DNA of 64,000 bases from Candidatus Eremiobacteria bacterium. GTDB taxonomy: Bacteria > Vulcanimicrobiota > Vulcanimicrobiia > Vulcanimicrobiales > Vulcanimicrobiaceae. The notes beneath the pieces were generated by a model. The model saw nothing but the letters and a program-made list of their open reading frames with translations, was not told the DNA's origin and did not search any database. A program made the position numbers and the translations under genes. Below, one piece after another: positions 24,134-56,445 of this stretch. Location of the stretch: positions 896,001 through 960,000 of the forward strand of contig CAVTRC010000001.1 in the NCBI GenBank assembly GCA_963737065.1. Direction: 5' to 3'. Positions within the stretch are counted from its first letter, which is position 1. The number at the start of each line of letters is the position of its first letter.

Positions 24134-25648
24134 TCATGTCACGACGCGCACGGTCTTGAGTTCGTCGTCGTATGGGCCCTGGATCCGAACGCCCGCACGC
24201 AATTCGAGGCGTAAATAGTCGATCAGTTCAGGCGTAATCTCTTCGCCCGGCGAGATGACCGGGATACCGGGCGGATACGGTGAGATCGTTTCCGCGCAAA
24301 TCCGCCCGGCCGAATCCTTGAACGGTACGGATTCCGTGTCCGCGAGAAACGCATCGCGCGGGAGCATACGCATCGGCGGAATCGCCGGCAATTCGTAACT
24401 CTTGCGCGTCATGCGCTGTTCGAGGATGCCCGACGGAGCATACATGTCGAGCGGACGTTGGTCGTGCGCCAGCTCTTCGAATGCCGTCACGAAGCGTTCC
24501 GCCGCGTCCCGCGTCGTGCCGATCGTGAACAACGCAACGATATTGAAGAGATCCGCGAGCTCGACTTGGATGTTGTACCGCTTGCGCAGAATTTCGGACG
24601 CTTCGTATCCGGTGTAGCCGAGGCCCGTTACCCGCACGGTGACCTTCGTAGGATCGAGGTCGAATATGCCTTCGCGCCCCTGCAGCTCTTCACCGAAACA
24701 GTAGATCCCTTCGATCGCGTTCAGTCGACTGCGAATCTCGTTCGCGAGTTCGATCGTTTGCGAGAGCAGCGCCGCACCCTCGGTCGCCATTTGTTTGCGC
24801 GCAACGTCGAGCGATGCGACCATCGGCAAATTTGGTGACGTCGACAAAAACATCTTGAGTACCGACTTCAGCCGATCGAGCCGCACGCGATCGCCGATTT
24901 GATGCAGCATCGCGCACTGGGAGAATGCGGAGAGCATCTTGTGCGTTGAATTGATGGACAAATCCGCACCGGCTGCCGTCGCAGAAATCGGGAGCGCCGG
25001 ATGGAAGTGAAAATGCGGCCCCCACGCTTCATCGATGAGCAACATCTTGCCACGTTCGTGCGCGATGCGTTCGATCGAGACGAGATCCGCCGCGACGCCG
25101 TAGTACGTCGGCGACACGAGATAAACGGCTCTAATGTCCGGATGCGCATCCAATGTCCGCTCCACCGTTTCCGGCGTAACGGCATTGTCGATGTGCATCT
25201 CTTGATCCACGGCCGGCTGCATGTAGACCGGCTCCGCGCCACTCATCACCAATCCGCCCAGCATCGACTTGTGCGAATTACGCGGCACGGCGATCTTCTC
25301 GCCGGGATTCAACGCGGTCATCATCATGCACTGATTGCCGCTCGTGGACCCGTTGATGAGGAAAAACGTATGTTCGGCACCATACGCCTGAGCGGCAAGC
25401 TCTTGTGCGTCCTTGATCGATTCCGTCGGCTGCAGCAAATCATCGATGCCTGGCATCGGCGTAAGGTCGATCGCGAGGATATTGTCTCCGACGAATTCGC
25501 GGAAGGCACGATCCGCGCCATGACCTTGCATATGACCGGGCGTATGGAACGGCTGCACGCCGGAATCGACATAGTCGAGCAACGCTTGGAAATACGGCGT
25601 CCGCGTCTGATCGAGCGGCTCGCGATCGGGTCGCGGTTCGGCAGCCAC
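24134..25648 (-). CDS. PLP-dependent Orn/Lys/Arg decarboxylase
   Basis: FHTPGH, NGSTSG, RNSHKS, DEAWGPH, STHK PLP lysine, STSP, PYPPGIP. Confidence 0.92.
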   Translation of the reverse strand: MAAEPRPDREPLDQTRTPYFQALLDYVDSGVQPFHTPGHMQGHGADRAFREFVGDNILAIDLTPMPGIDDLLQPTESIKDAQELAAQAYGAEHTFFLINGSTSGNQCMMMTALNPGEKIAVPRNSHKSMLGGLVMSGAEPVYMQPAVDQEMHIDNAVTPETVERTLDAHPDIRAVYLVSPTYYGVAADLVSIERIAHERGKMLLIDEAWGPHFHFHPALPISATAAGADLSINSTHKMLSAFSQCAMLHQIGDRVRLDRLKSVLKMFLSTSPNLPMVASLDVARKQMATEGAALLSQTIELANEIRSRLNAIEGIYCFGEELQGREGIFDLDPTKVTVRVTGLGYTGYEASEILRKRYNIQVELADLFNIVALFTIGTTRDAAERFVTAFEELAHDQRPLDMYAPSGILEQRMTRKSYELPAIPPMRMLPRDAFLADTESVPFKDSAGRICAETISPYPPGIPVISPGEEITPELIDYLRLELRAGVRIQGPYDDELKTVRVVT

Positions 25649-25652
25649 CCAG

Positions 25653-25982
25653 CTACGCCATTACTTCGAAACCGAGTCGTTCCAGCATCGCGAAGTCATC
25701 TTCGTCTCCGCGGCCGCTCCTCGTCAAGTGGTTTCCAAGCACGATGCCGCTTGCGCCGCTGCGCATGCCGAAATCCTCTAGCATTCGCAGCATGGTTTCA
25801 CGCCGCCGCGAAACCGGACCAATGCGCGCGGCAGCGCGGGACGCGCCATGGCGACGAAACACACCGTGCCGGCGCGAATCGATCGGCGACGTGCTGCCGC
25901 CGCGAACAAAGGTACGCTGCGACGCATCGAAGGACTGCATCTGGGTGAACGAAAGCCAGAGCCGGAACCGAACTTCTACCAT
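25653..25982 (-). CDS. Small hypothetical protein; reality and start uncertain
   Basis: 109-aa ORF ending 4 nt before the decarboxylase start; no recognisable motif. Confidence 0.3.
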   Translation of the reverse strand: MVEVRFRLWLSFTQMQSFDASQRTFVRGGSTSPIDSRRHGVFRRHGASRAAARIGPVSRRRETMLRMLEDFGMRSGASGIVLGNHLTRSGRGDEDDFAMLERLGFEVMA

Positions 25983-26000: not shown

Positions 26001-27485
26001 GTGGACGCCGCGGTAATCATCGTCGGCGGAGGCCCCGTCGGCCTCTCGCTGTCGCTCGGTTTGGCGCGCTACGGCGTGCGTTCTATGCTACTCGAACGCA
26101 ACGCCGAGCCCGTTGCGGAGTCGCGCGCCGTTGTCATCTGGCCGCGTACGCAAGAAATATTCCGCGATTGGGGCGTCTACGATGCCGTGCGCTCGCGCTC
26201 GCGATTCATCGATGAACTGATCGTCGTTAACGCGCGAAACGAAAAAGTACTGGTTGCGCTTGATTGGAACGTTATCGATGACGTCGTCGAGAAACCTGGG
26301 GCCTTGATCATCCCGCAAAACGAAACCGAGAGCGCCTTACGGGAGCTGGTGCGCGCAAATCAGTTGTGCGAATTGCGCACCGGTGTGACGGTTACCGGCC
26401 TGCGCCAAGATCACGAAGCCGTCGACGTAACGTACGCCGACGGCGCAAACAAACATGTCGTGCGCGGCAGCTACGTAGCGGGATGCGACGGCGCGCACGG
26501 GGTCGTGCGCCATCTCGTCGGCCTCGCGCTCCAGGGCACGACGTATGACACTCGCATCGTATTGAGCGACGAGCTGTTCGATGAGGACTTCGACCGCGGC
26601 GTTACCGCACGCGCGCGGCTCGATCACGTACACGTTCGCGGCGCGCTGAAGTTCGGCGAGCGCATGTGGCGCGTCGTCGCCGCCGTTCCTGCTGACGACG
26701 GGAACGACGAAGACATTCTCTCGCAATGCGCACATCAGGAACGTCTTCGCGATATCTTCGGTGACCGCGCGTCGACGACCATGTGGAGCAGCGTATTCAA
26801 CATCCATAAGCGACATGCACAGCAATTTGTGGTGGGCCGTGTCGCGCTCGCAGGGGATGCAGCACACCTGAACAGCCCAGCCGGAGGCCAGGGAATGAAT
26901 GCAGGCATTCAAGATGCGGCAAATTTAGCTTGGAAAATCGCTTACGCGTTGCGCGGTCAGGGAGACGGCCGTACTCTCTTCGGAAGCTTCGATGTCGAGC
27001 GGCGCGAGATGGTCACCGATACGATCGAACGATATACGGACCGCCTGACGCGGGTCGCGCTTGGGGTTTCCACGCGCGCAAAACAATTCGTCGTGCGCGC
27101 GGTATCGCGCGCCATTCGCGGCCGCGGCATGCAGCGTAAGACATGCCGGGCGCTCGGAATGCTAAGCGGACGCTATACGAAATCGCCGATCATCGACATT
27201 AGCCACCCGCTGGCAGGCCGGCGCATCGATGATTTACGGCTTGAACACGGCCGGCGCATCAGTGAGATGCGCAACGGCGATCCCTTACTCGTCGTCGTCG
27301 GAGATTACGAGCTTGCTGTCCCACACGTTACAATTCGCACGCCGCCGAAACGCTGGCACGTGAAACCGCCTGTCGTATTGATCGTGCGTCCCGATGGGTG
27401 CGTGGCGTCCGTCGTGACAAAACCGACGCGCGAACGCATCGAGAGCGCATGGAATAAGGCCTTTTGCGGAACGCTGCGGCTGTGA
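26001..27485 (+). CDS. FAD-dependent monooxygenase (FAD_binding_3)
   Basis: GGGPVG, GCDGAHG, LAGDAAHLNSPAGGQGMN. Confidence 0.9.
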   Translation: MDAAVIIVGGGPVGLSLSLGLARYGVRSMLLERNAEPVAESRAVVIWPRTQEIFRDWGVYDAVRSRSRFIDELIVVNARNEKVLVALDWNVIDDVVEKPGALIIPQNETESALRELVRANQLCELRTGVTVTGLRQDHEAVDVTYADGANKHVVRGSYVAGCDGAHGVVRHLVGLALQGTTYDTRIVLSDELFDEDFDRGVTARARLDHVHVRGALKFGERMWRVVAAVPADDGNDEDILSQCAHQERLRDIFGDRASTTMWSSVFNIHKRHAQQFVVGRVALAGDAAHLNSPAGGQGMNAGIQDAANLAWKIAYALRGQGDGRTLFGSFDVERREMVTDTIERYTDRLTRVALGVSTRAKQFVVRAVSRAIRGRGMQRKTCRALGMLSGRYTKSPIIDISHPLAGRRIDDLRLEHGRRISEMRNGDPLLVVVGDYELAVPHVTIRTPPKRWHVKPPVVLIVRPDGCVASVVTKPTRERIESAWNKAFCGTLRL

Positions 27486-27730
27486 CGGACTGGATTACAT
27501 GGCTGTACATCGGCGGCGGCGTTCTGATGATGATTTCGGCCGTAATCCCGTCCCGCAGCTCTGCCATAACGCGCAGCGGCGCAGCGATCTTCGGATTCGG
27601 CGCACTCATCGTCGGGATTTCGCGCCTGCAATCCGATGCAACACCAATCAGATACGCGGGATCGGTGATTCTCGTCATCGGGGCCGTGGTGTACGTGATC
27701 GGATCGGTACGCGACCGCAAGGTAAAGTAA
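27482..27730 (+). CDS. Small membrane protein (3 TM)
   Basis: GTGA start/stop overlap with the monooxygenase; three hydrophobic segments. Confidence 0.6.
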   Translation: MTDWITWLYIGGGVLMMISAVIPSRSSAITRSGAAIFGFGALIVGISRLQSDATPIRYAGSVILVIGAVVYVIGSVRDRKVK

Positions 27731-27758
27731 ACCGGCACACCGAGCCGCAGAAGTATAC

Positions 27759-28289
27759 TTATCCTTCGATGCGCTCGTCGATCGATACGTTGTAGAGGAA
27801 TAAGAACTTGCCCCATTCATCGGGCAGCGTGTTGCGCTTGATTTGAATCCAGGGGATGTACTTCGGCTGACGTGGTTTCTTTTTCAACGTCAGATTGCAT
27901 TCGTTCGGCGTGCGGTTGTTCTTGCGGTTGTTACAGCGCATACACGCGCAGACAAGATTCTCCCACGTCGACGGTCCGCCGCGGCTCTTCGGCACGACGT
28001 GATCGACGGTCATGAGCTTCTCGCCGCGGACGCCGCAGTACTGACACGTGTGATTGTCACGAATCAAAACGTTCTTCTTCGTCAACGCGACTTTTTGCAT
28101 GGGCCGCCGGATGTAGTACAACATCCGGATGATGGAGGGCATGCGCATCTCGTAGCGCGTCGATGCAAGAATCCGGTCGCGGTCGTGAACGATCTCCGCT
28201 TTACCGGAAAACAGCAACTTGACCGCGCGCTGGAAGCTCGTGATGTTCAGGGCTTCATACGTAAAATTCAAGACGAGCACGTCGCTCAC
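27759..28289 (-). CDS. HNH endonuclease (McrA-like)
   Basis: VLVLN..YE, CQYCG, TVDHVVPKSRGG, WENLVCACMRCN. Confidence 0.92.
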   Translation of the reverse strand: MSDVLVLNFTYEALNITSFQRAVKLLFSGKAEIVHDRDRILASTRYEMRMPSIIRMLYYIRRPMQKVALTKKNVLIRDNHTCQYCGVRGEKLMTVDHVVPKSRGGPSTWENLVCACMRCNNRKNNRTPNECNLTLKKKPRQPKYIPWIQIKRNTLPDEWGKFLFLYNVSIDERIEG

Positions 28290-28355
28290 AATCGCTGTCC
28301 TCCTTCAGCGCGCGGCGGCGGATATCGGTGACAACATGCAAGAAAGCGAGACACT

Positions 28356-28646
28356 TTAGGTGCCTCGCTTTTTTACGAACGTCATTCGGGTTTCGGTCAG
28401 CATCTGCGTGATCGCTAACCTTTCGTCGGGCCGCAACCTTTCTTTCACCCGTTCGAAAGCGCTCGTCGCGACGTCGATCGCCGCTTCCGCACTGGGGAAA
28501 TCGGGTTCACGTTGGTCCGTGTCCGACAGATACGCATGCGCCGCAAGCGCGAGCGTCGCAATCACTTCGGTGAGCAACGGCTCGAGCGGCGGGATCTGCC
28601 CTTGGAATCCGGCCTGTGCGCCCGGAGGGGCCGCGTGCGAACTCAT
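28356..28646 (-). CDS. Small hypothetical helical protein (DUF1844-like pattern)
   Basis: About 96 aa; AHAYL...AEAAID...LTETRMTFV; follows pdxT. Confidence 0.55.
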   Translation of the reverse strand: MSSHAAPPGAQAGFQGQIPPLEPLLTEVIATLALAAHAYLSDTDQREPDFPSAEAAIDVATSAFERVKERLRPDERLAITQMLTETRMTFVKKRGT

Positions 28647-28658
28647 TTGTCGCACAGA

Positions 28659-29285
28659 TTATGCGGCCGAAGATGTCTTCCCTACGGTTTTTCTCGCCGC
28701 ATCGACGATTTTCAAGAAGTACGCATGAACGCGCGGATCGTTCGTAAGCTCGGGATGGAACGATGTTCCGAGCACGTTTCCCTGGCGAACCATAACGCCG
28801 TGGCCGTCACGTTCGGCGAGCAATTCGACCGAGGGACCGACGCGTTCGATCCACGGCGCGCGAATGAAGATCGCGGGAAACGGCTGCGCACCGAGCACGT
28901 CGATCTGCAGATCCACTTCGGCGGAGTCGTTCTGCCGGCCGAACGCATTGCGACGCACGGTAATGTCGATCAAGTCAAGCGTCGGCTGGTTGACACCCGC
29001 AACATCGTGCGCCGCGACGATCATGCCCATGCATGTGCCCCACAGCGGCATGCCGTTGTGCACGCGCGACGTGATCGGCGCGTGCAATGCGAATCGCTCG
29101 AGTAACTTCATGACCGTGGTCGACTCGCCGCCGGGAATCACGAGCCCATCGACTTTATCGAGATCCGCCTGGGTCTTCACCGCAATCGCGCGCGCCCCGG
29201 CCCGTTCGAGCGAGGCGATGTGTTCGATGACATCGCCTTGCAATGCGAGCACCCCGATGAGAGCCGGCGCGTTGCTAGTTTCCAC
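28659..29285 (-). CDS. pdxT: PLP synthase glutaminase subunit
   Basis: GVLALQG, IPGGEST, GTCMG, RNAFGRQ, FIRAP, FHPEL; GTG start overlapping the pdxS end. Confidence 0.95.
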
Positions 29286-30171
29286 GCGTTGCGAGCAGTT
29301 CCGAGTCCGCAAGCTTGCGCACATCGATGCCCGGCATCGCATCCGACGTCCCGAGCGAACGGCACGCTTCGGCCACGACCTTCGCATCGTTGAAGTGCGT
29401 CGTTGCATCGACGATCGCTTTTGCGAACTTCTTCGGGTCGTTCGACTTGAAAATGCCGCTGCCGACGAAAATCCCTTCCGCGCCGAGTTGCATCATGAGC
29501 GCGGCGTCGGCCGGCGTAGAAACGCCGCCGGCGCAGAACAGCACGACCGGAAGCTTACCGGCCTCGGCGACTTCACGAACGAGCTCGTAGCTCGCGCCGA
29601 GATCGCGGGCGCGCGCAACCAGTTCTTCCTTCGGTGCAACGGTCAGCATGGATATCGCGTCATTGATCGCGCGAATGTGCCGCACGGCTTCGACGATGTT
29701 CCCGCTTCCGGCTTCACCCTTACTGCGAATCATCGCGGCGCCTTCCGTAATGCGGCGCAGCGCTTCACCGAGATCGCGCGCGCCGCAGACAAACGGCGTC
29801 GTAAACGCGTGTTTGTCGCAGTGATACAGATCGTCGGCGGGCGTGAGCACCTCCGATTCGTCGATGTAATCGACGCCGACCGATTGCAGCACTTGCGCCT
29901 CGGCAAAATGGCCGATGCGGACCTTCGCCATGACCGGAATCGTAACGGCGTCCATGATTCCTTGAATCAGCTCGACCGAGCTCATGCGCGCAACCCCACC
30001 CGCCGCGCGGATGTCGGAGGGGATTCGCTCGAGCGCCATCACCGCGACCGCGCCGGCGTCCTGTGCAATGACCGCCTGGTCGGGCGTCACGACATCCATG
30101 ATGACGCCGCCCTTGAGCATCTGCGCGAGTCCGCGCTTGACGGTGACGGTTCCGGTTTGCTGGTCGGCCAC
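29275..30171 (-). CDS. pdxS: PLP synthase lyase subunit
   Basis: [44 protein letters not shown]. Confidence 0.97.
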
Positions 30172-30244
30172 GATGGAACTCCTCTAAAACGACGCTTTGT
30201 CTCTATCGTATCAGCGGATTCCAATAAAGACATTAGGTACAACC

Positions 30245-30712
30245 CTACGGGGCGGACGTGGGTGTCGTACCAGGCGATGGCTCCGGGCTAGCGCTCGCTT
30301 GTGGAACGGGTGAAAACGGCGGAGGCGTAAGCGTCGGCTTCGGCGAGCCGTTTGGCGGAAACGTCTGGTCCCAAATTGGGATCTTCGGATTGGGCGTCCA
30401 CTTCGGCGTCTTGCGCGGGCCCGGCGTCGGCGTGGGTTCCAGCGTCGGCAACGGCTTCGGCGGGATGCGCGGGTCGGGGAAGCTCGGATCGCCGGCAGCG
30501 GTGATCGTCTGCTCGCGTTTCCAATCAGGGCCGTAGGTTACCGGCGTCTCGGCGGGGACCGGCGTTATGACCGGTGTCGTGTCGAGCGTGCCCGAATTCG
30601 TCGCTTGAACGAGGACGTGCGTACCCATTCGTTGGCCGATGTAGATCGCGGCAAGAAGAACGACGACACCAATGCCGAGAACGACCGTGACAAAACGTTT
30701 AGATGGATCCAT
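30245..30712 (-). CDS. Membrane-anchored Pro/Thr-rich hypothetical protein
   Basis: Single N-terminal TM helix followed by a Pro/Thr-rich tail. Confidence 0.6.
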   Translation of the reverse strand: MDPSKRFVTVVLGIGVVVLLAAIYIGQRMGTHVLVQATNSGTLDTTPVITPVPAETPVTYGPDWKREQTITAAGDPSFPDPRIPPKPLPTLEPTPTPGPRKTPKWTPNPKIPIWDQTFPPNGSPKPTLTPPPFSPVPQASASPEPSPGTTPTSAP

Positions 30713-47740: not shown

Positions 47741-49273
47741 CTACGCGGGCTCCCACTTCAAATCGGGATTGCGGGCCGCACGCGTCTCGTCGACGCGGCT
47801 CACCACGGTCGTTACCGGCGCCGCCATCACCGCCTCGGGATCGCGCTTCGCTTCTTCGACGATTTCGCGCAGCACGCCGACGAATGCGTCGAGCGTTTCC
47901 TTCGACTCGGTTTCCGTCGGCTCGATCATCAAGCACTCGGGAACGATCAGCGGGAAATACATCGTCGGCGCCATCATGCCGTGATCGAGCAGCGCCTTCG
48001 CGAGGTCGAGCGCTTTAACGCCCGTTTGTTTCTTCAATTCCTGTGCCGACGCAACGAATTCATGACGGCAGATCTCCGGATACGGGGTATCGAGAAATTC
48101 GGCGACTTTGACCCGCACGTAGTTTGCATTGAGCACGGCGAGTTGCGAAACCGTTTTCAAACCGTCCGCGCCGTTTGCGTAGATGTATGCGAGCGCGCGC
48201 ACCGCGTGCGCGAAGTTCGACCAGAACGAACGCATCGGACCGATCGATTTGGGACGGTCGAAGTCAAGCGAGAACGTATACCTGTCGCTCGGCGCCGCAT
48301 TGGCGTCGCCGTTGGTCTTCGGCGTTGCGCGCACGACGGGCGTGGGCAGGTAGTCGACGAGATGCGCTGCGACACCGAGCGGTCCATGACCCGCACCGCC
48401 GCCGCCGTGTGGAATCGTGAACGTTTTATGTGTGTTGAGATGCATCAGATCGAAGCCCATGTCTCCGGGACGCACGTTGCCCATGATCGCGTTCGCATTC
48501 GCACCGTCGTAATACATCAGCCCGCCCGCATCATGGACGGCTTGCGCAATTTCATGAATATGATCTTCGAAAAGCCCAAGAGTGTTGGGATTCGTCATCA
48601 TGCAGACAGCGGTATCGTCGCCGAGGACTTTCTCGATTTCCGCGACGCTCACACGTCCGCGCTGATCGGACGGCAAGCTGATGACTTTGAACCCGCACAT
48701 CGCCGCGGAAGCGGGATTCGTTCCGTGCGCCGTGTCGGGCACGATGACCTTGTCGCGCCCGGTCTCGCTCTTGTCTTTGAAGTACTTCTTCGCGATCAAG
48801 AGTGCCGCAAGTTCCGCGTGCGCACCGGCCGAGGGATTGAGCGAAAACGCCGCCATACCGAAGAGCGAAGAGAGCGAACGCTCCAGCTCATACATCACCT
48901 GCAGCGCGCCTTGCGCGAGCTGGTCGGGCGTATACGGATGCAACCTGGCGAATCCGCGCTTCGTCGCGATCGCGTCATTGATGCGCGGGTTATACTTCAT
49001 CGTGCAGGATCCGAGCGGATAGAAGCCCAGATCGATGCCGAACGTGCGTTGCGAAAGCTTCGTGAAATGACGGATGACGTCGAGCTCGCTGTTATCCGGA
49101 AGCGGCAAGTCGTCGCGAAGCAGCGATTTCGGTAAAAACTCCGTCATCGGACGCGCATCCTCGACGTACTTGTTCGCGCGACCGTCTTGCCCGAGATCGA
49201 AAATCAGCTCGGGAGCCGCCGCCTCGGCGTGCCGGGCTCGCTGCGGATTTCCATCAAACGTTTGCGTGGACAC
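47741..49273 (-). CDS. gcvPB: Glycine dehydrogenase subunit 2
   Basis: YPLGSCTMKYNP, AHGTNPASA, HLNTHKTF..PHGGGG, EPTETES. Confidence 0.96.
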   Translation of the reverse strand: MSTQTFDGNPQRARHAEAAAPELIFDLGQDGRANKYVEDARPMTEFLPKSLLRDDLPLPDNSELDVIRHFTKLSQRTFGIDLGFYPLGSCTMKYNPRINDAIATKRGFARLHPYTPDQLAQGALQVMYELERSLSSLFGMAAFSLNPSAGAHAELAALLIAKKYFKDKSETGRDKVIVPDTAHGTNPASAAMCGFKVISLPSDQRGRVSVAEIEKVLGDDTAVCMMTNPNTLGLFEDHIHEIAQAVHDAGGLMYYDGANANAIMGNVRPGDMGFDLMHLNTHKTFTIPHGGGGAGHGPLGVAAHLVDYLPTPVVRATPKTNGDANAAPSDRYTFSLDFDRPKSIGPMRSFWSNFAHAVRALAYIYANGADGLKTVSQLAVLNANYVRVKVAEFLDTPYPEICRHEFVASAQELKKQTGVKALDLAKALLDHGMMAPTMYFPLIVPECLMIEPTETESKETLDAFVGVLREIVEEAKRDPEAVMAAPVTTVVSRVDETRAARNPDLKWEPA

Positions 49274-50615
49274 GGACGATCTCTCCCAGAGCGTTGGCAA
49301 GTGCGTCGATCTCACCCGTTGTCGTGAGTTCGGTAGCGTTCATCAGGACGCAGGTCGACAGCTCCGGATACCAGCGACCCAGATCGACACCGCCTAGAAT
49401 ACCGCGTTCCTGCAATTCCGCGAGCACCGGTGCCGCCGGCTGATGCACGTCGACGACGATTTCGTTGAAGAACGGCGAGCTGAACTTCAAATCGATGCCC
49501 TGGACGCTCGAAACAGCGGTCGCGAGCTCGCGCGAACGTTGGAGGTTCAGCGCGGCCACGTCGTGCAGGCCGGTCTTACCCATCAGCGCGAGGTAGATCG
49601 TCGCAATAAGTGCGCAGTGCGCTTGATTCGTGCAAATGTTCGATGTGGCGCGCTCGCGTCGTATGTGTTGCTCGCGCGCCTGCAACGTCAACACGTAGGC
49701 GGTTTTCTTCTCTTTATCGACCGTCTTGCCGACGAGCCGTCCCGGAATGCGACGCATGTGCTCTTTAGTGGACGCAATGAACCCGACATACGGACCGCCG
49801 TACGCCATCGCGACACCGAAGCTTTGCGCTTCACCAACTACGATCTCGGCACCCCACGAGGCCGGCGTTGCGAGCGCGGCGAGCGAAATTGCCTCGGAGA
49901 CGACGGCGATCGGTACCGTCCCACTCTCTCGCACGGCGGACGCAGTTTCACGGTCGAACGCTTCGATATTTCCGAAGAAGTTCGGCGTCTGCAGCGCCAC
50001 GCAAGCATACTGTTTCGATGCAACCGCGGTCTTTAACGCATCGAGATCCGTCGTTCCGTTCGCGCTCACCGGCAATTCATCCATTGCAACGTCGAGACCG
50101 TCGCAGTACGTCTTGAGCACCGCGCGGTAATTCGGATCGACGGCTCGCGAAACGAGGACGGTTTTCCGTCCGTTCGCATTGAGCGCCATGATCGCCGCTT
50201 CAGCGAGCGCCGTCGCTCCGTCGTAGACCGACGCGTTTGCGATGTCCATGCCGGTGAGCAGGCAGATGTAGCTCTGCCACTCGTAGATCGCTTGCAGATA
50301 ACCCTGTGAGACTTCCGCTTGATACGGCGTGTACGCCGTGAGAAACTCGCCGCGCATCGCGAGCGCACCGATCGCCGGCGGCGCATAGTGACGATATGAA
50401 CCCGCACCGAGGAATGAGACGTAATCGACGCCGGCATTCTTCTTCGCGAAGTGCTCGAAACGCCGCGCGATTTGATATTCCGGCAACGCCGGAACGACGT
50501 CGAGCTGCGTCTTTAGCGCGACGGCGTCGGGGACTTTGAGCAGTTCATCGAGCGACCCGGCGCCGATCGCGTCGAGCATCGCACGAATATCTTCCTCGGT
50601 GTGCGGCGTGTACAA
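49254..50615 (-). CDS. gcvPA: Glycine dehydrogenase subunit 1
   Basis: EFLTAYTPYQAEVSQG, NASVYDGATA, REQHIRRERATSNICTN; TTG start. Confidence 0.96.
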   Translation of the reverse strand: MYTPHTEEDIRAMLDAIGAGSLDELLKVPDAVALKTQLDVVPALPEYQIARRFEHFAKKNAGVDYVSFLGAGSYRHYAPPAIGALAMRGEFLTAYTPYQAEVSQGYLQAIYEWQSYICLLTGMDIANASVYDGATALAEAAIMALNANGRKTVLVSRAVDPNYRAVLKTYCDGLDVAMDELPVSANGTTDLDALKTAVASKQYACVALQTPNFFGNIEAFDRETASAVRESGTVPIAVVSEAISLAALATPASWGAEIVVGEAQSFGVAMAYGGPYVGFIASTKEHMRRIPGRLVGKTVDKEKKTAYVLTLQAREQHIRRERATSNICTNQAHCALIATIYLALMGKTGLHDVAALNLQRSRELATAVSSVQGIDLKFSSPFFNEIVVDVHQPAAPVLAELQERGILGGVDLGRWYPELSTCVLMNATELTTTGEIDALANALGEIVRVHANV

Positions 50616-50622
50616 TTAGACG

Positions 50623-50861
50623 GCGCTCCGCCCCAGGCTCCGCGCCCCCCATTTCATGGGGCCCCCGGGCCGTGGGGTGCATTTAACGTGAGTGGTAAGC
50701 ATTTCTCTCCCCTAGGGCACCCCTAAAGGACTCCTCGGCGGACAGCGCTCCGCCCCAGGCTGAGCTGTCCTGAGCGAAGTCGAAGGACGCCCCCCATTTC
50801 ATGGGGCCCCCGGGCCGTGGGGTGCATTTAACGTGACTGGTAAGCATTTCTCTCCCCTAGG
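50623..50861. repeat. Tandem direct repeat (two 74-bp cores at 73/74 identity plus 17-bp flanks), with a REP-like hairpin inserted in one copy
   Basis: 50643-50716 vs 50788-50861; gcgctccgccccaggct at 50623 and 50745; insert at 50762-50787 containing gtcctgagcgaagtcgaagga. Confidence 0.9.
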
Positions 50862-50877
50862 CAGCTTAAAGCATCGC

Positions 50878-51258
50878 TCAGTCGACTGAAATTTTTTCGT
50901 AATCATCGGGCGAGAGTAGGTTGTTCTTTTCATTTGCGTCTTTGAGCTTGACTTTGAAGAGCCAGCCTTCACCATATGGGTCGCGATTTACCGCGGCCGG
51001 ATCCGCGTCGAGCGCAGCGTTCACTTCGACGATCTCACCACCGATCGGCGTAAAGAGATCGGAAACGGCCTTTACCGACTCGATCACGCCGACGTTACCG
51101 AATTGATCGATCTGTTTGCCGACGCGCGGAAGTTCGACGTACACAATGTCGCCTAGCGAGTTCTGCGCGTAATCGGTAATGCCGATCGCCGCGGTGTCGC
51201 CGTCGACTCTCACCCACTCGTGTTCCTTGCTATACAGCAGATCCGCTGGCTGCGCCAT
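50878..51258 (-). CDS. gcvH: Glycine cleavage system H protein
   Basis: EHEW, GITDYAQ..LGD, ESVKAVSD lipoyl lysine, DPYGEGW. Confidence 0.97.
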   Translation of the reverse strand: MAQPADLLYSKEHEWVRVDGDTAAIGITDYAQNSLGDIVYVELPRVGKQIDQFGNVGVIESVKAVSDLFTPIGGEIVEVNAALDADPAAVNRDPYGEGWLFKVKLKDANEKNNLLSPDDYEKISVD

Positions 51259-51277
51259 GTACGACCGTACTCCTTAT

Positions 51278-52381
51278 TTACTTTGCTCGTTTATAGAACG
51301 GCAGCGCCACAACCGTGGCGTCGTGCTTCGTGCCGCGTATCTCGACCGCAAGCCGCGTGCCTTCGGTTGCGGCCTCTTTGGCAACCAGCGCGGTGGCGAT
51401 ATTCTTGTTCTCGACCGCGGGCGCCATGGATCCGCTGCGAATTTCGCCGACTTCGCGGTCGCCGAGAAAGACCTTGTATCCCTCGCGCGCCGGAGCACGG
51501 CTTGACATGACGAGGGCGACGATACGCGCGTAGTCGTCGCGTTCCATCTGCTCGACGAGCGCGTTGCGCCCGATGAACTCCGGTTTGCTCGTCTTGAGCG
51601 CCCATTGCAATCCCGCTTGCACGGGCGTGATGTTTTCGGTCAGCTCGTGACCGTACAGCGGCATGCCGGCTTCCAAGCGCAGCACATCGCGCGCACCTAA
51701 ACCGCACGCTTCCAACCCGTTGGCGCCTTCGTCGCGCAGCAGACTACGCCAAATCTCCGGCGCATGTTCGCCAAAAACGAAGAGCTCGAACCCATCTTCA
51801 CCGGTGTAACCCGTGCGCGCGATAATCGCCGGTCTGCCGTACACATTGCCTTCGGCGCAGAAGTAGTACTTCAGCGCGTCGAGATCGACGTCGACGTGCG
51901 GCTGCAAGAGCGCGATGGATTTTGGACCTTGAATCGCGATCAACGCATTACGCCCGTGCAGATTTTCGAGGCGTACGCCGTCGGCGAGATTCGCGTTCAA
52001 GTGGTTCCACATTTTATCGGCGTTCGCGCCGTTCACGACAAGCAGCCAGCGCTGCGCAAGACGATAGAAAATCGTATCGTCGTGCGCGCCGCCTTCGGGA
52101 TTGCAAAAGATGTTATAACGCGCCTGCATGGGTTTCATCGTGCCAACCGCGTTGATCGTCAACGTATCTGCCCACGAAGCGACATTCGGGCCTTCCAGAA
52201 CGAACTGGCCCATGTGCGAGAGATCGAACAGTCCGGCGCGATGACGTACGGCGTCGTGCTCTTTCAAAATGCCGGCGTACTGCACGGGCATTTCGAAGCC
52301 GGCGAAGGGCACGAGCCGCGCACCGAGCTTCGCATGTTCGTCGTAGAGCGCCGTGCGACGCAAGTCAGTCGAAGCAGTCAT
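51278..52381 (-). CDS. gcvT: Aminomethyltransferase (T protein)
   Basis: [44 protein letters not shown]. Confidence 0.96.
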
Positions 52382-52836
52382 TCGGGCGGCCCTTTCGCCC
52401 CGTGAAAGGGCGCGGCGTTCTCATTTGCGTACGTATTAAGGAAGTTCAGCGTGGCGTGCGCGACGAGCTTTTCGTTACTCTTCACCTGCACTTCGCCGTA
52501 ACAAATTCGCCTTCCAGCGCGAAGCACGGTCGCTTCCGCGATCAAATCGTGTGGCGGCAACGCCGGCGCAAGAAAATTGCACTGCAGCGAAGCGGTCACC
52601 GTGTCTTGTTCTCGACCGTAAATAGAAGCAAGCGCCACGTAGAACACGGTGTCGCACAAGCTCACGATCGCACCGCCGTGCACGGCGCCCGCGCCGTTGG
52701 CAATGTCCGGACGGAACGGCATGCGCATGACGGCCTTTCCGCGGTCGACCGACTCGAGTTTCAAGTCGAGGAGCGCGACGAAATGCGACTTTTCCTTTTC
52801 CCAGCGATGGGGAGCCGAGGCGAAATCGATGCTCAT
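52378..52836 (-). CDS. PaaI-family hotdog thioesterase
   Basis: ANGAGAVHGGAIVSLCD; overlaps the gcvT start. Confidence 0.88.
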   Translation of the reverse strand: MSIDFASAPHRWEKEKSHFVALLDLKLESVDRGKAVMRMPFRPDIANGAGAVHGGAIVSLCDTVFYVALASIYGREQDTVTASLQCNFLAPALPPHDLIAEATVLRAGRRICYGEVQVKSNEKLVAHATLNFLNTYANENAAPFHGAKGPPE

Positions 52837-52881
52837 GAACCTCCGAAGCGTACTGACAGCGGGCCCGTGCGTCTACGGCTT

Positions 52882-53799
52882 TTAGCTAAAGACCGGCCCG
52901 GGAGCGGCGAGCGCGCGCCGCACGTAGAGCGGAAGTGAAAACAACCGCTTGTGCGTTTCGCCGTCGTAGAAGAAATTCTCGCCTTTGAGCCCCGCGCAAT
53001 ACTGATCGACGGCAGCAACACTCAGCTCCGCGAGATTGACGCCGTCACTGCACGCGAGAAACGCCCAGTCGGTGTCAAAGGCGGGCACGGAATGAAAGAA
53101 CGACGTGACGTATCTATAGTGCTTCATCAACGTGCGCGCCATTTTCGCATGCAACGATAAGTTGTGGAACGCAAGCGTACTCGCTTGGAGAACGTAAATG
53201 CCGTGTTCGGTCAAACGCGACTTGACGAGCTTGAAGACACCCTCGTTGAAGAGGACGTTACTCGGCGAATCTTCGAGCGGCTCCGTGAGGTCCGAGATGA
53301 TGACGCCGTAACGGCCGTCGTTTTGCCGCATGAATTCCAGCGCGTCGCCGATCATGACGCGCGCCCGCGGATCGTCGAATGCGCCGTCGCTCCATTCCGG
53401 GAGATACTGTTTCGAAAGATCGACGACTAAGCCGTCGATATCGACCATCGTGCACCGCTCGACGTCGGAACGGCGTAACACTTCGCGTAATGTCGCGCCT
53501 TCGCCGCCGCCGAGAATCAAGACCTCGCGCCGGTCGGTCGCGCCGGCGAGCGCCGGATGCACGAGCGCCTCGTGATAAATCTTCTCGTCGTGCTGCGAGC
53601 TCTGCGTGTCGCCGTCGAGAATCAGCATCTTGCCGAACACCGGCGAGCTGATGATCGAAACTTGTTGAAACTGCGAGCGTCCCGCGTAATACACGGTATC
53701 GATCGCGTGGTGATGCTGTTCGGTCGGAGCAAACTCCTCAACGTACCACTGCCAATGTTCGGTCTTCGGCATAGCGGGCAGCGCTTTCGCCAAGCACAA
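52882..53799 (-). CDS. speE: Polyamine aminopropyltransferase (spermidine synthase family)
   Basis: YHEALVHP, LILGGGEGATLREV, VDID, ISDLTEP; start TTG 53799 or ATG 53772. Confidence 0.92.
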   Translation of the reverse strand: MCLAKALPAMPKTEHWQWYVEEFAPTEQHHHAIDTVYYAGRSQFQQVSIISSPVFGKMLILDGDTQSSQHDEKIYHEALVHPALAGATDRREVLILGGGEGATLREVLRRSDVERCTMVDIDGLVVDLSKQYLPEWSDGAFDDPRARVMIGDALEFMRQNDGRYGVIISDLTEPLEDSPSNVLFNEGVFKLVKSRLTEHGIYVLQASTLAFHNLSLHAKMARTLMKHYRYVTSFFHSVPAFDTDWAFLACSDGVNLAELSVAAVDQYCAGLKGENFFYDGETHKRLFSLPLYVRRALAAPGPVFS

Positions 53800-53823
53800 A
53801 GGGCACCCCCTCGGGATGCCCTT
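53799..53823 (-). promoter_or_regulatory. Stem-loop covering the speE ribosome-binding region (terminator or translational control)
   Basis: Minus strand aagggcatccc-gag-ggggtgccctt, 11-bp stem with one G-U pair. Confidence 0.5.
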
Positions 53824-53845
53824 CGAGCCGCTCGAACTCGCGACG

Positions 53846-55613
53846 CTATCGCATGCGATAGCTCAGCCGGTGTTTGCGAATCACGTTATCCGCAACAACG
53901 CCTTGCACGTAGGGCGCAATTGCAGCCGGCAGCGTTATGGACGACACGTTGGCATAGCGCCGGCCGTAGCGACCTTCGTAGACGTTGTGAATCGCGGTAC
54001 GGAAGTAGCCATTCACGAGCGATGCGGGAGCAGTTGCTTGGATCAACAGGTGGCTCGGATACGTTCGCGTTACGGTGAAACCGGCCGCTTGCAACGCGGC
54101 GATCACGGTTCGTTCGTCTTGCGCAGCGGTCGGAGCCGCGCGCATGACGATCGAAACGGGTGTCGGCGCATCGGCGTTACGGCCGCCGAGGTCGGACATG
54201 AAGCGAACGTTCACCGCATTTTTCAGGTCCGTATCGCGCGCGGCGCCGCGGCTTTGCTCGGCAAACGCTTGCGCTCGCGCGACGAACGTCCAGCTGCGCG
54301 ACGGACACATCCGCGCGGCGACGGTTTCTCCGTTCGGAAGTCCAAGCCCGGTTGCGTCGTCGTAGCCCTTCACGGCCGTGTAGTACGGCGACGATGAGCC
54401 GAAGCGATTGTTTCCTGACGTTACATCAAAAAACGCTGAACCGTTCGAACGAGTATACGCGGTGTAAAGCGCGGCAACCGCACTCGCCGGCGTACCGTGA
54501 CAATACTCGTCGAGTTCCGCTATGAGTGCCGCGGTTTGCGGCGCACCCCACGATGTGCCGCCGAAGATTTGCCACGAGCCTCCATAATAGATGCCGACGG
54601 CTTCGGACGGCATCGCGATATCCGGTACGTTACGGTACGTCATCGATGCCACGCCGGAGATCGTCGCTTGATACGATGGAATCGGGAAATTCGACGAGAC
54701 TCCGCCGCCGGTCGCACCCTGACTCGGATTGCCGGAGCCGTTCTGAAAGAAGAAGTCGTTCCATGCGACGGCCGACGTCAGGGTCGTCAAGGTGTATTTC
54801 GAGCCCGACGACGTTGACGTTTTCATTGCCGCCGACGCCGATCACGTTCGGATTGCTGGCGGGATAATTGGGTCCGGGCGTGTACGTCGTGCCGCTCACA
54901 TAACACTCGTTGCCTTGATCGCCCGACGACGCGGTGTATGCAATGCCCTTCCCGGCGGCCTGAGCGAACAGTGAATCTTCCGCGCTGCTGTTGTATTCGC
55001 AGCCGCCGAACGACTCACTGACGACGATCGGTTTCAACGAATCGGTCAAAACGTGTTGTTCGGCTGCGAGGAACGCCGATGTATCGAGGTTCGGAATTGC
55101 GAGGAACTCGACCGTCGCGCCGGGCGCCATTGCAAGCGCCGTTTCGACATCGAGCGCCGCCTCTTGATCGTCACCGTTTGCCGCGCCGGTGCCGTCGGGA
55201 CCACCGTCGATGTTGACGACTTTTAACGCGCCGCCGGCACGGGCAGTCAATCCTACGCCGGCCAGAAAACCGTTCACGTCGGCCGGACTCGGCGTCGCGT
55301 CGCCGACGATCGCGATCGTTTGTCCTACACCGCTGTAACCGCCGATCACCGGGAACTTCAACGCAGATGCGACCTGGTACGGAGCCCATATTCCGCGCTG
55401 CGGCAATTCGCTGATCGGGGGCATCGTCGCATCGGCGCCGGGCGCGAACGTACCCGTCGGAACCGGGGTCGGCGTCGGAGTTTGCTGCGGAGTAGGCGTC
55501 GTGTTGGTTTGCGGCGTAACGCCGCCACCACCGCCTCCGCCGCATGCCGCGAGCAAGGCGCATGTCGCAACGGCGATGGCGCCGCCGATACGAACCCCGA
55601 GTCGACTGTTCAT
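53846..55613 (-). pseudogene. S53 (sedolisin) peptidase lipoprotein with C-terminal prodomain-like region, split by a +1 frameshift near 54820-54823
   Basis: ORF1: lipobox LLAAC, EAALDVE, SSGDQG, YPASNPNVIGVGG. ORF2: RNVPDI, GGTSWGAP, DVTSGNN, GYDDATGLG, then a pro-kumamolisin-like segment. Confidence 0.8.
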
Positions 55614-55775
55614 CTGAAGGACCGGTCCTTGAGAAGAGTGATTATAGAGCGACGAGTACACGCGCGCCTAAAGACACTTCTCGCGCGGGCAGCGTTGCTT
55701 TGCTACCGTTAAACGCTTTCCATGCCGGAACTATCGCACGTACTCACGTTATCGAGCGCATCTGAGTCAAAAATT

Positions 55776-55805
55776 AAACGAGCACCGCCGTCGCGGTGCT
55801 CGTTT
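55776..55805. terminator. Intrinsic terminator downstream of speD (bidirectional form)
   Basis: aaacgagcaccgc-cgtc-gcggtgctcgttt 13-bp perfect stem with T-rich tails on both strands. Confidence 0.8.
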
Positions 55806-55825
55806 CTTCTTGAAACCGGAGATCG

Positions 55826-56236
55826 CTACGCCGAGAGCGCCACGGTTTCGTGATCGCGGGTCACGGCGTGCGTGAAGGTTCCGCTCGGTTGCGCGATGCC
55901 GCGCTTCACTTCGGTCGTCTGCATGACCTTCGCATCGAGCACCTTGGCGGCGTGCTCGCAGGCCAGCCACGGGTCGGTGTGATCGCCGCACGTATAGAAA
56001 TCCATCGCGGCATAGCCCATTTCCGGCCAGGTGTGGATCGAGATATGGGACTCGGCGAGGACGACCACGCCGGATACCCCTTGAGGCTCGAATCTGTGGA
56101 AGGCGACTTCCATGACGGTTGCGCGCGATGCCCTTGCTGCGCCGATCATCATGTCGCGAACCGCGTCGACATCGGTGAGCGCCGCTGCATCACAGCCCGA
56201 CAGCTCGCACACGATGTGCGTTCCGAGTGCTTTCAC
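55826..56236 (-). CDS. speD: S-adenosylmethionine decarboxylase proenzyme
   Basis: LGTHIVCEL, FEPQGVSGVVVLAESHISIHTWPE (self-cleavage at ES), DFYTCG; start GTG 56236. Confidence 0.94.
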   Translation of the reverse strand: MKALGTHIVCELSGCDAAALTDVDAVRDMMIGAARASRATVMEVAFHRFEPQGVSGVVVLAESHISIHTWPEMGYAAMDFYTCGDHTDPWLACEHAAKVLDAKVMQTTEVKRGIAQPSGTFTHAVTRDHETVALSA

Positions 56237-56445
56237 TTCTATCGCTCTCCTCAGAGCCTTGGGGGAATCCCACCTCCGGACTTCGTCGGCTGGCGCCTGC
56301 AGTGCAGTCACGTCCCCGACCTATCGACGAACTCTTGCCGGCGCTTTTCGGTGCACGGGCGATTCGTCGCGATGGCGCGAAAAGGCGCGCCCTCCTGAAA
56401 CCGTGGACCGCACGCCACAGAGAAGTAGCCTCGGGTCCGGCGAAC

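Follow-up and report, generated by a model that had tools for sequence, protein, structure and literature searches.

A family of putative lipoprotein sedolisins in Vulcanimicrobiota with the prodomain at the C-terminus

Subtilase and sedolisin prodomains are textbook N-terminal intramolecular chaperones, which fold first and then template the protease. A sedolisin (family S53) gene of a Candidatus Eremiobacteria bacterium, found in a stretch of 64,000 nucleotides that is here called the window and to which all plain coordinates refer, raises the question of whether such a prodomain can also stand behind the catalytic domain of a lipid-anchored protease, and what this order would mean for folding and activation. 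In this study, the gene, its protein domains, its relatives and its genomic setting were analyzed computationally, focusing on domain order, distribution, phylogeny and possible mechanism.

Two minus-strand ORFs overlap at this locus in different frames, namely 54630..55661 (343 aa) and 53846..54826 (326 aa). The former holds the lipobox LLAAC, a Gly run, a Pro/Thr-rich linker and the motifs EAALD and SSGD, and the latter holds GGTSWGAP and GYDDATGLG followed by about 145 further residues that end in a basic tail. Positions 55613..53846 of the minus strand are one S53 gene, split by a single extra base. Its extent was taken from the ORFs, the starts of the homologs P0001 and P0002 and the ortholog of locus L001; intact homologs begin with MNSRLG and the true start is therefore the ATG at 55613, while the stop codon occupies 53846-53848. 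The gene length of 1768 nt equals 3 x 589 + 1, and DNA alignment with the L001 ortholog, which is intact and encodes 574 aa, places the extra base at about 54803-54807 of the minus strand, in or beside a GGG run. An earlier note on this DNA had claimed both the extent 53846..55613 and a lipobox with a Gly/Pro-Thr linker ahead of the S53 motifs, and both claims agree with these results.

The S53 gene sits between the genes for AdoMet decarboxylase (55826..56311) and spermidine synthase (52882..53799), with a thioesterase gene downstream and SufB upstream on the other strand. A family member occupies this speH-speE slot in seven loci (L001, L002, L006, L010, L015, L023 and L025), of which L025 is cut by a contig end ahead of speE. 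Compared with those of the window, the slot neighbours are 81-98% identical in the five closest loci and 64-78% identical in L010 and L025, and the protease of the five closest loci is only 42-77% identical to that of the window. Conserved neighbours and a diverged protease in a shared slot indicate a gene that has long been kept and evolves fast. The DNA of the window probably belongs to an organism closely related to that of L001.

Several further features of the window were recorded. The minus-strand interval 52378-56311 looks like a polyamine operon of AdoMet decarboxylase, S53 protease, spermidine synthase and thioesterase, and immediately behind these genes, at 47741-52420 of the same strand, a complete glycine cleavage set (T, H and two P subunits) is encoded. 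An Orn/Lys/Arg decarboxylase is encoded at 24137-25660. A small HNH endonuclease ORF (27762-28304, minus strand) stands beside the Pfam-less ORFs 27308-27883 and 28360-30288, and this region may be a mobile or defence-related islet.

The window copy of the S53 gene is either a recent pseudogene or the product of a sequencing error. The former, in which the frameshift is genuine and functional protein is absent from this genome, falls in our estimate only slightly short of even odds. It is favoured by the one base in excess of the intact L001 ortholog and by the state of the remaining window, in which the split-domain signature was found in none of the 41 further ORFs (29 matching Pfam families and 12 without a match) and six other same-strand overlapping ORF pairs are separate genes rather than split ones, so that the assembly is not generally riddled with indels. 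A further point in favour of a pseudogene is that the copy of L006 is split too, into two overlapping ORFs but elsewhere in the gene (L006:3968-6453; catalytic HMM position about 300). Against a dead gene, both halves are similar throughout to intact orthologs (76-77% identity) and are without in-frame stops, the frameshift lies in or beside a homopolymer, as is typical of sequencing error, and the speH-speE slot is occupied by a family member in the seven loci above, including the split L006 and the truncated L025. A programmed frameshift was also considered and is unlikely, since the first frame continues without a stop for roughly another 57 codons past the frameshift and 26 of the 27 family loci have a single ORF, L006 being the one that is split.

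The catalytic domain runs across both frames of the minus strand. Its first part (54803..55385) carries the Glu and Asp of EAALD and the Asp of SSGD, as assigned from the kumamolisin match of P0001, and its second part (54290..54802) carries the Ser of GGTSWGAP and the motif GYDDATGLG, as assigned from the sequence, the invariant S347 and the comparison of the model with 1T1G. Pfam returned no family at E<=1 for the first ORF. The homolog P0001, 76-77% identical to the second ORF of the window, matches kumamolisin-As (1SIO) over its catalytic domain with E 5e-33 and about 33% identity, and its full-length model (pTM 0.83, C-domain pLDDT >90, tether of low confidence) matches kumamolisin 1T1G with E 4.1e-24 and a TM of 0.84 normalised by target length. 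Across 21 sequences no variation was seen at E144, D148, D225 and S347 (P0001 numbering), which lie within motifs aligning with kumamolisin and represent the catalytic Ser-Glu-Asp triad and the oxyanion-hole Asp. The ESM Atlas offered generic S53 clusters only and held no structure for the S53 protein of the window. Among the features of membership in MEROPS S53, the catalytic residue set and the subtilisin-like catalytic fold are present, but the prodomain is located at the extreme C-terminus and not at the N-terminus; the protein is an S53 member by its catalytic domain, but without the usual domain order of the family.

Behind the catalytic domain, an unconserved interdomain linker of about 20 aa (54230..54289, minus strand), delimited from the linkers of the family and the pLDDT <50 of P0001 residues 437-443, leads to a Pro-kuma_activ-like domain of about 115 aa (53885..54229, minus strand), placed by Pfam, AF2 and Foldseek. 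Pfam assigned PF09286 (Pro-kuma_activ) to residues 233-311 of the second ORF with E 2.9e-9 and 37.8 bits against a cut-off of 23.5; the match covers only positions 59-138 of the 143 in the profile, part of the canonical prodomain being missing. The last 145 residues of the window protein, modelled alone by AF2 from an 83-row alignment, gave a pLDDT of 93.7, a pTM of 0.84 and a strand-helix pattern. At E<=0.001 the only PDB matches of this model in Foldseek were the S53 zymogens 1T1E, 3EE6 and 3EDY, the match to pro-kumamolisin 1T1E having E 4.8e-7 and a TM of 0.67 normalised by query length; the subtilisin BPN' prosegment (1SPB_P) appeared at rank 13 with a probability of 0.89, a non-significant E of 0.18 and a target-normalised TM of 0.58.

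Sequence profiles gave a similar picture. An HMM of the C-domain, built from 21 family members, also recognises the N-terminal prodomain in 109 canonical proteins, the lowest E being 1e-32. When the family profile was compared with 1T1E_A, the order of the two domains was swapped, with chain 483-550 matching the end of the catalytic domain (i-E 6e-6) and chain 115-160 matching the C-domain with an i-E of 20, which is weak alone; a C-domain match at chain 20-52 was not significant. Among 66 members, the catalytic domains share a mean pairwise identity of 46% and the C-domains one of 43%, which suggests similar constraint on both. Judged by these profiles and by the predicted structure, the C-terminal region is a homolog of the sedolisin prodomain in sequence and fold. 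The prodomain that the earlier note had proposed at the C-terminus was thus borne out by a Pfam score above the cut-off and by a fold matching 1T1E, 3EE6 and 3EDY, and its statement that characterised sedolisins carry this domain N-terminally holds for the solved S53 zymogens and for the swapped order of the 1T1E comparison.

The distribution of this order was then analyzed in protein and genome collections. A word-index search for longer proteins returned 102 matches; in all 21 best homologs (40-76% identity, 87-98% query coverage) PF09286 was found only at the extreme C-terminus, and in the four weaker matches that were scanned (P0022, P0025, P0033 and P0036) it was found at the N-terminus. 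An exhaustive search retrieved 4231 cluster representatives at E<=0.001, 86 of them at E<=1e-30. A total of 246 fetched proteins were classified with two HMMs (catalytic and C-domain), among which 84 had the prodomain at the C-terminus (hereafter permuted), 109 had it at the N-terminus (canonical), 42 had the catalytic domain only, 9 had the prodomain only, one was ambiguous in arrangement and one matched neither HMM. None of the 84 permuted proteins carried an N-terminal prodomain in addition. At the genome level, 42 loci from species-representative genomes comprised 27 permuted, 11 canonical and 2 catalytic-only loci and 2 in which the contig ends before the C-domain. The permuted loci carry Vulcanimicrobiota/Eremiobacterota-type names in 23 cases and are from an unclassified 'bacterium' in the remaining 4, and the loci from Acidiferrales and Verrucomicrobiota are canonical or catalytic-only. 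A misassembly, or a fusion with the prodomain of a neighbour, which the earlier note had named as a danger to its reading, was rejected on the recurrence of the same order in these 21 of 21 best homologs, 84 of 246 proteins and 27 of 42 loci; moreover, the ORF ends 4-40 aa past the C-domain in 84/84 proteins, and the unrelated speE follows in six loci.

An unrooted FastTree phylogeny was reconstructed from 171 catalytic domains (66 permuted and 105 canonical), with 75 rows left out as fragments, catalytic-only, prodomain-only or ambiguous. The permuted class forms one side of a single branch with a local support of 100, and one change of arrangement is required. The sister group of this class is made up of 9 canonical proteins, one of which, P0025, comes from an Eremiobacteraeota MAG. 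On this tree, the permuted arrangement arose once, beside canonical lipoprotein paralogs of the same phylum. The classical route to a circular permutation is a tandem duplicate that is fused and trimmed at both ends. Tandem gene pairs were found for permuted members in L002 (730-5587) and L028 (188-5611) and for canonical members in L032 and L036, and such S53 pairs could have been the raw material for tandem duplication, fusion and end trimming in this family.

At the N-terminus, a signal peptide with lipobox (residues 1-24, ending LLAAC; 55542..55613, minus strand) was delimited from the sequence and from Cys24, which is found in at least 90% of the 21-sequence alignment, and the Gly run and Pro/Thr-rich linker (residues 25-76; 55386..55541, minus strand) were delimited from the sequence and from the pLDDT <50 of P0001 residues 1-50. 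The beginning MNSR...LLAAC with its Gly run fits the lipoprotein pattern of a basic n-region, a hydrophobic h-region and a lipobox Cys within about 40 residues; lipoboxes were called throughout by sequence pattern, without a dedicated predictor. Lipobox-like N-termini were found in 50/66 or 49/66 complete family members, depending on the pattern, and several of the members outside it are variants or N-terminally truncated ORFs. A lipobox is also present in 24 of 107 canonical relatives, and the permuted form is thus not set apart by its anchor. Since most of the sister canonical proteins, at least 6 of the 9, carry one (P0179, P0025, P0168, P0023 and P0165, for example), the lipid anchor is probably older than the permutation, which would then change the piece that keeps the anchor.

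Many members (P0003-P0021 and relatives) carry, between lipobox and catalytic domain, either an insert of about 200 aa without a Pfam family, at about 30-240 in P0003, or Tectonin repeats. In the canonical sisters (P0025, P0168, P0023 and others), the prodomain is separated from the catalytic domain by about 200 unassigned residues, a much longer stretch than in kumamolisin. A shared origin of the insert and this canonical middle region is without support: an HMM of 25 inserts matched 28 proteins, all of them permuted.

Taken as a whole, the protein is best read as a lipoprotein sedolisin with circularly permuted zymogen domains, in which the C-domain would be a tethered chaperone and inhibitor whose removal would leave the enzyme lipid-anchored, as the earlier note had also proposed, a reading to which we give a probability of roughly 0.6. 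The domains follow each other as lipid anchor, linker, catalytic domain, new tether of 18-40 aa, prodomain and short basic tail. After export, the C-terminal prodomain would help the catalytic domain to fold and would then cap it in the manner of the N-terminal prodomain of pro-kumamolisin and pro-TPP1, with the basic tail filling the stretch of the substrate groove that is taken up in canonical zymogens by the beginning of the linker. Acidification would loosen the prodomain, and the tether would be cleaved either by the same enzyme molecule or by one nearby, possibly in trans; the released prodomain would be degraded, and the active enzyme would remain on its N-terminal lipid anchor at the cell surface.

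The basic tail allows this proposal to be compared with the canonical zymogens residue by residue. In the window protein it consists of 12 aa (VIRKHRLSYRMR; 53849..53884, minus strand), and in the 84 family members the conserved ...DN motif is followed by 4-40 residues (median 12) with a high content of Arg, His and Pro. The last Val of YVQGVV in the window protein is aligned to 1T1E chain position 160, and the offsets of the P0001/kumamolisin alignment indicate that the 1T1E chain index equals pro-numbering. Counted linearly from this alignment, on the assumption of no gaps, the last residue of the window chain falls near pro-kumamolisin position 175, and that of family members with tails of 7-13 residues at about 170-176. 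According to PMC2635056, the catalytic domain of pro-TPP1 and pro-kumamolisin is enveloped by the prodomain, and the linker behind the prodomain runs through the substrate groove. For pro-kumamolisin, a pairing of Arg169 in this linker with the oxyanion-hole Asp and an autocleavage site at His171-Phe172 are described. With an end at about 175 and a canonical cut at 171-172, the permuted chain would stop near the canonical self-cleavage site, and the basic tail appears from this alignment to correspond to the groove-threading part of the canonical linker.

These positions suggest a more specific form of the proposal, which we put forward tentatively and with appreciable doubt. The permuted proteins would be natural 'pre-cut' zymogens, in which the tail would sit in the groove like a bound product, acid would release the prodomain, the tether would be cleaved in trans rather than through the active site of the same molecule, the chaperone would act from the C-terminus, and the cell could use the permutation to turn a protease that is released into one that stays anchored at the surface. 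A fixed, product-like fit of the tail in the active site is not universal, since tail length ranges from 4 to 40 aa and a terminal Arg is present in no more than 35 of the 84 members.

Alternatively, the C-domain may never be cut off, serving as a permanent tethered lid with pH-driven, reversible autoinhibition in place of a one-way zymogen. We consider this unlikely, although the free end of the tail near the equivalent of the canonical cleavage site would allow the groove to be freed without a cut, conservation of the C-domain almost reaches that of the catalytic domain, and just 7 residues of the tether (437-443 of P0001) have a pLDDT below 50. Characterised S53 and subtilase prodomains are removed and degraded, as described in PMC2635056, and the tether of the permuted proteins is unconserved and 18-40 aa long among 66 members, as expected of a disposable, cleavable linker. 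It is quite improbable that the C-domain has been co-opted for substrate or cell-wall binding or for oligomerisation and is neither chaperone nor inhibitor, as the partial match to the Pfam profile and the further non-catalytic modules of many members (the insert of about 200 aa or the Tectonin repeats) might suggest, since 0/84 members have an N-terminal prodomain or another source of the folding help that S53 enzymes normally need, the C-domain fold matches, at E<=0.001, S53 prodomains only, and the pTM of 0.83 for P0001 suggests fixed packing against the catalytic domain.

The preferred reading, a permuted zymogen whose enzyme stays on its lipid anchor, can be set against known systems. Pro-kumamolisin (1T1E) and kumamolisin-As share with the permuted proteins a homologous catalytic domain, the same Glu/Asp/Asp/Ser set and the same prodomain fold; in the permuted protein, however, a lipobox stands at the N-terminus, the prodomain follows the catalytic domain and lacks a part, the linker that threads the groove is replaced by a tether of 18-40 aa, and the chain stops close to the position that corresponds to the canonical cut. 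The human TPP1 precursor (3EDY and 3EE6), for which an acid-triggered activation model is described in PMC2635056, is likewise an S53 zymogen with a prodomain capping the catalytic domain and supplied the second and third structural matches of the C-domain, but its prodomain is N-terminal, the protein is a soluble lysosomal glycoprotein and the sequence match is weak (E 0.001).

The nearest relatives on the catalytic-domain tree are the canonical lipoprotein S53 paralogs (P0025, P0168, P0179 and P0023), which have lipobox N-termini and strong matches to the C-domain HMM. Their order differs, being lipobox, prodomain, about 200 aa and catalytic domain, and the same activation would instead cut the enzyme loose, with removal of the prodomain detaching it from the anchor. 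The prosegment of subtilisin BPN' (1SPB chain P), an intramolecular chaperone and inhibitor, has the same general alpha/beta prodomain fold but is N-terminal, 77 aa long and of family S8. C-terminal propeptides of other subtilases are generally unrelated in fold to the prodomain and occur alongside a retained N-terminal one. An example of a removable C-terminal propeptide on a clan SB protease is that of TKSP of Thermococcus kodakarensis (PMC12474785).

A full-text search of openly accessible literature returned no description of a sedolisin or subtilase with a Pro-kuma_activ prodomain at the C-terminus, and the names given to the permuted proteins in public sources are 'hypothetical protein' or 'kumamolisin'. 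The natural occurrence of a conserved family in which the prodomain comes after the catalytic domain provides a test of whether folding depends on the order of the chain. If the pre-cut form of the proposal is true, an intramolecular chaperone of the subtilase type can do its work at the C-terminus, once the catalytic domain has been exported, and the family offers a putative zymogen that is barred from the canonical activation cut. The permuted architecture is also a ready design for anchored or tethered-inhibitor proteases. Several record names in the phylum point to palsa, bog and SPRUCE samples. For the bacteria that carry it, the permutation would provide a simple logic for keeping a putative acid protease on the cell surface.
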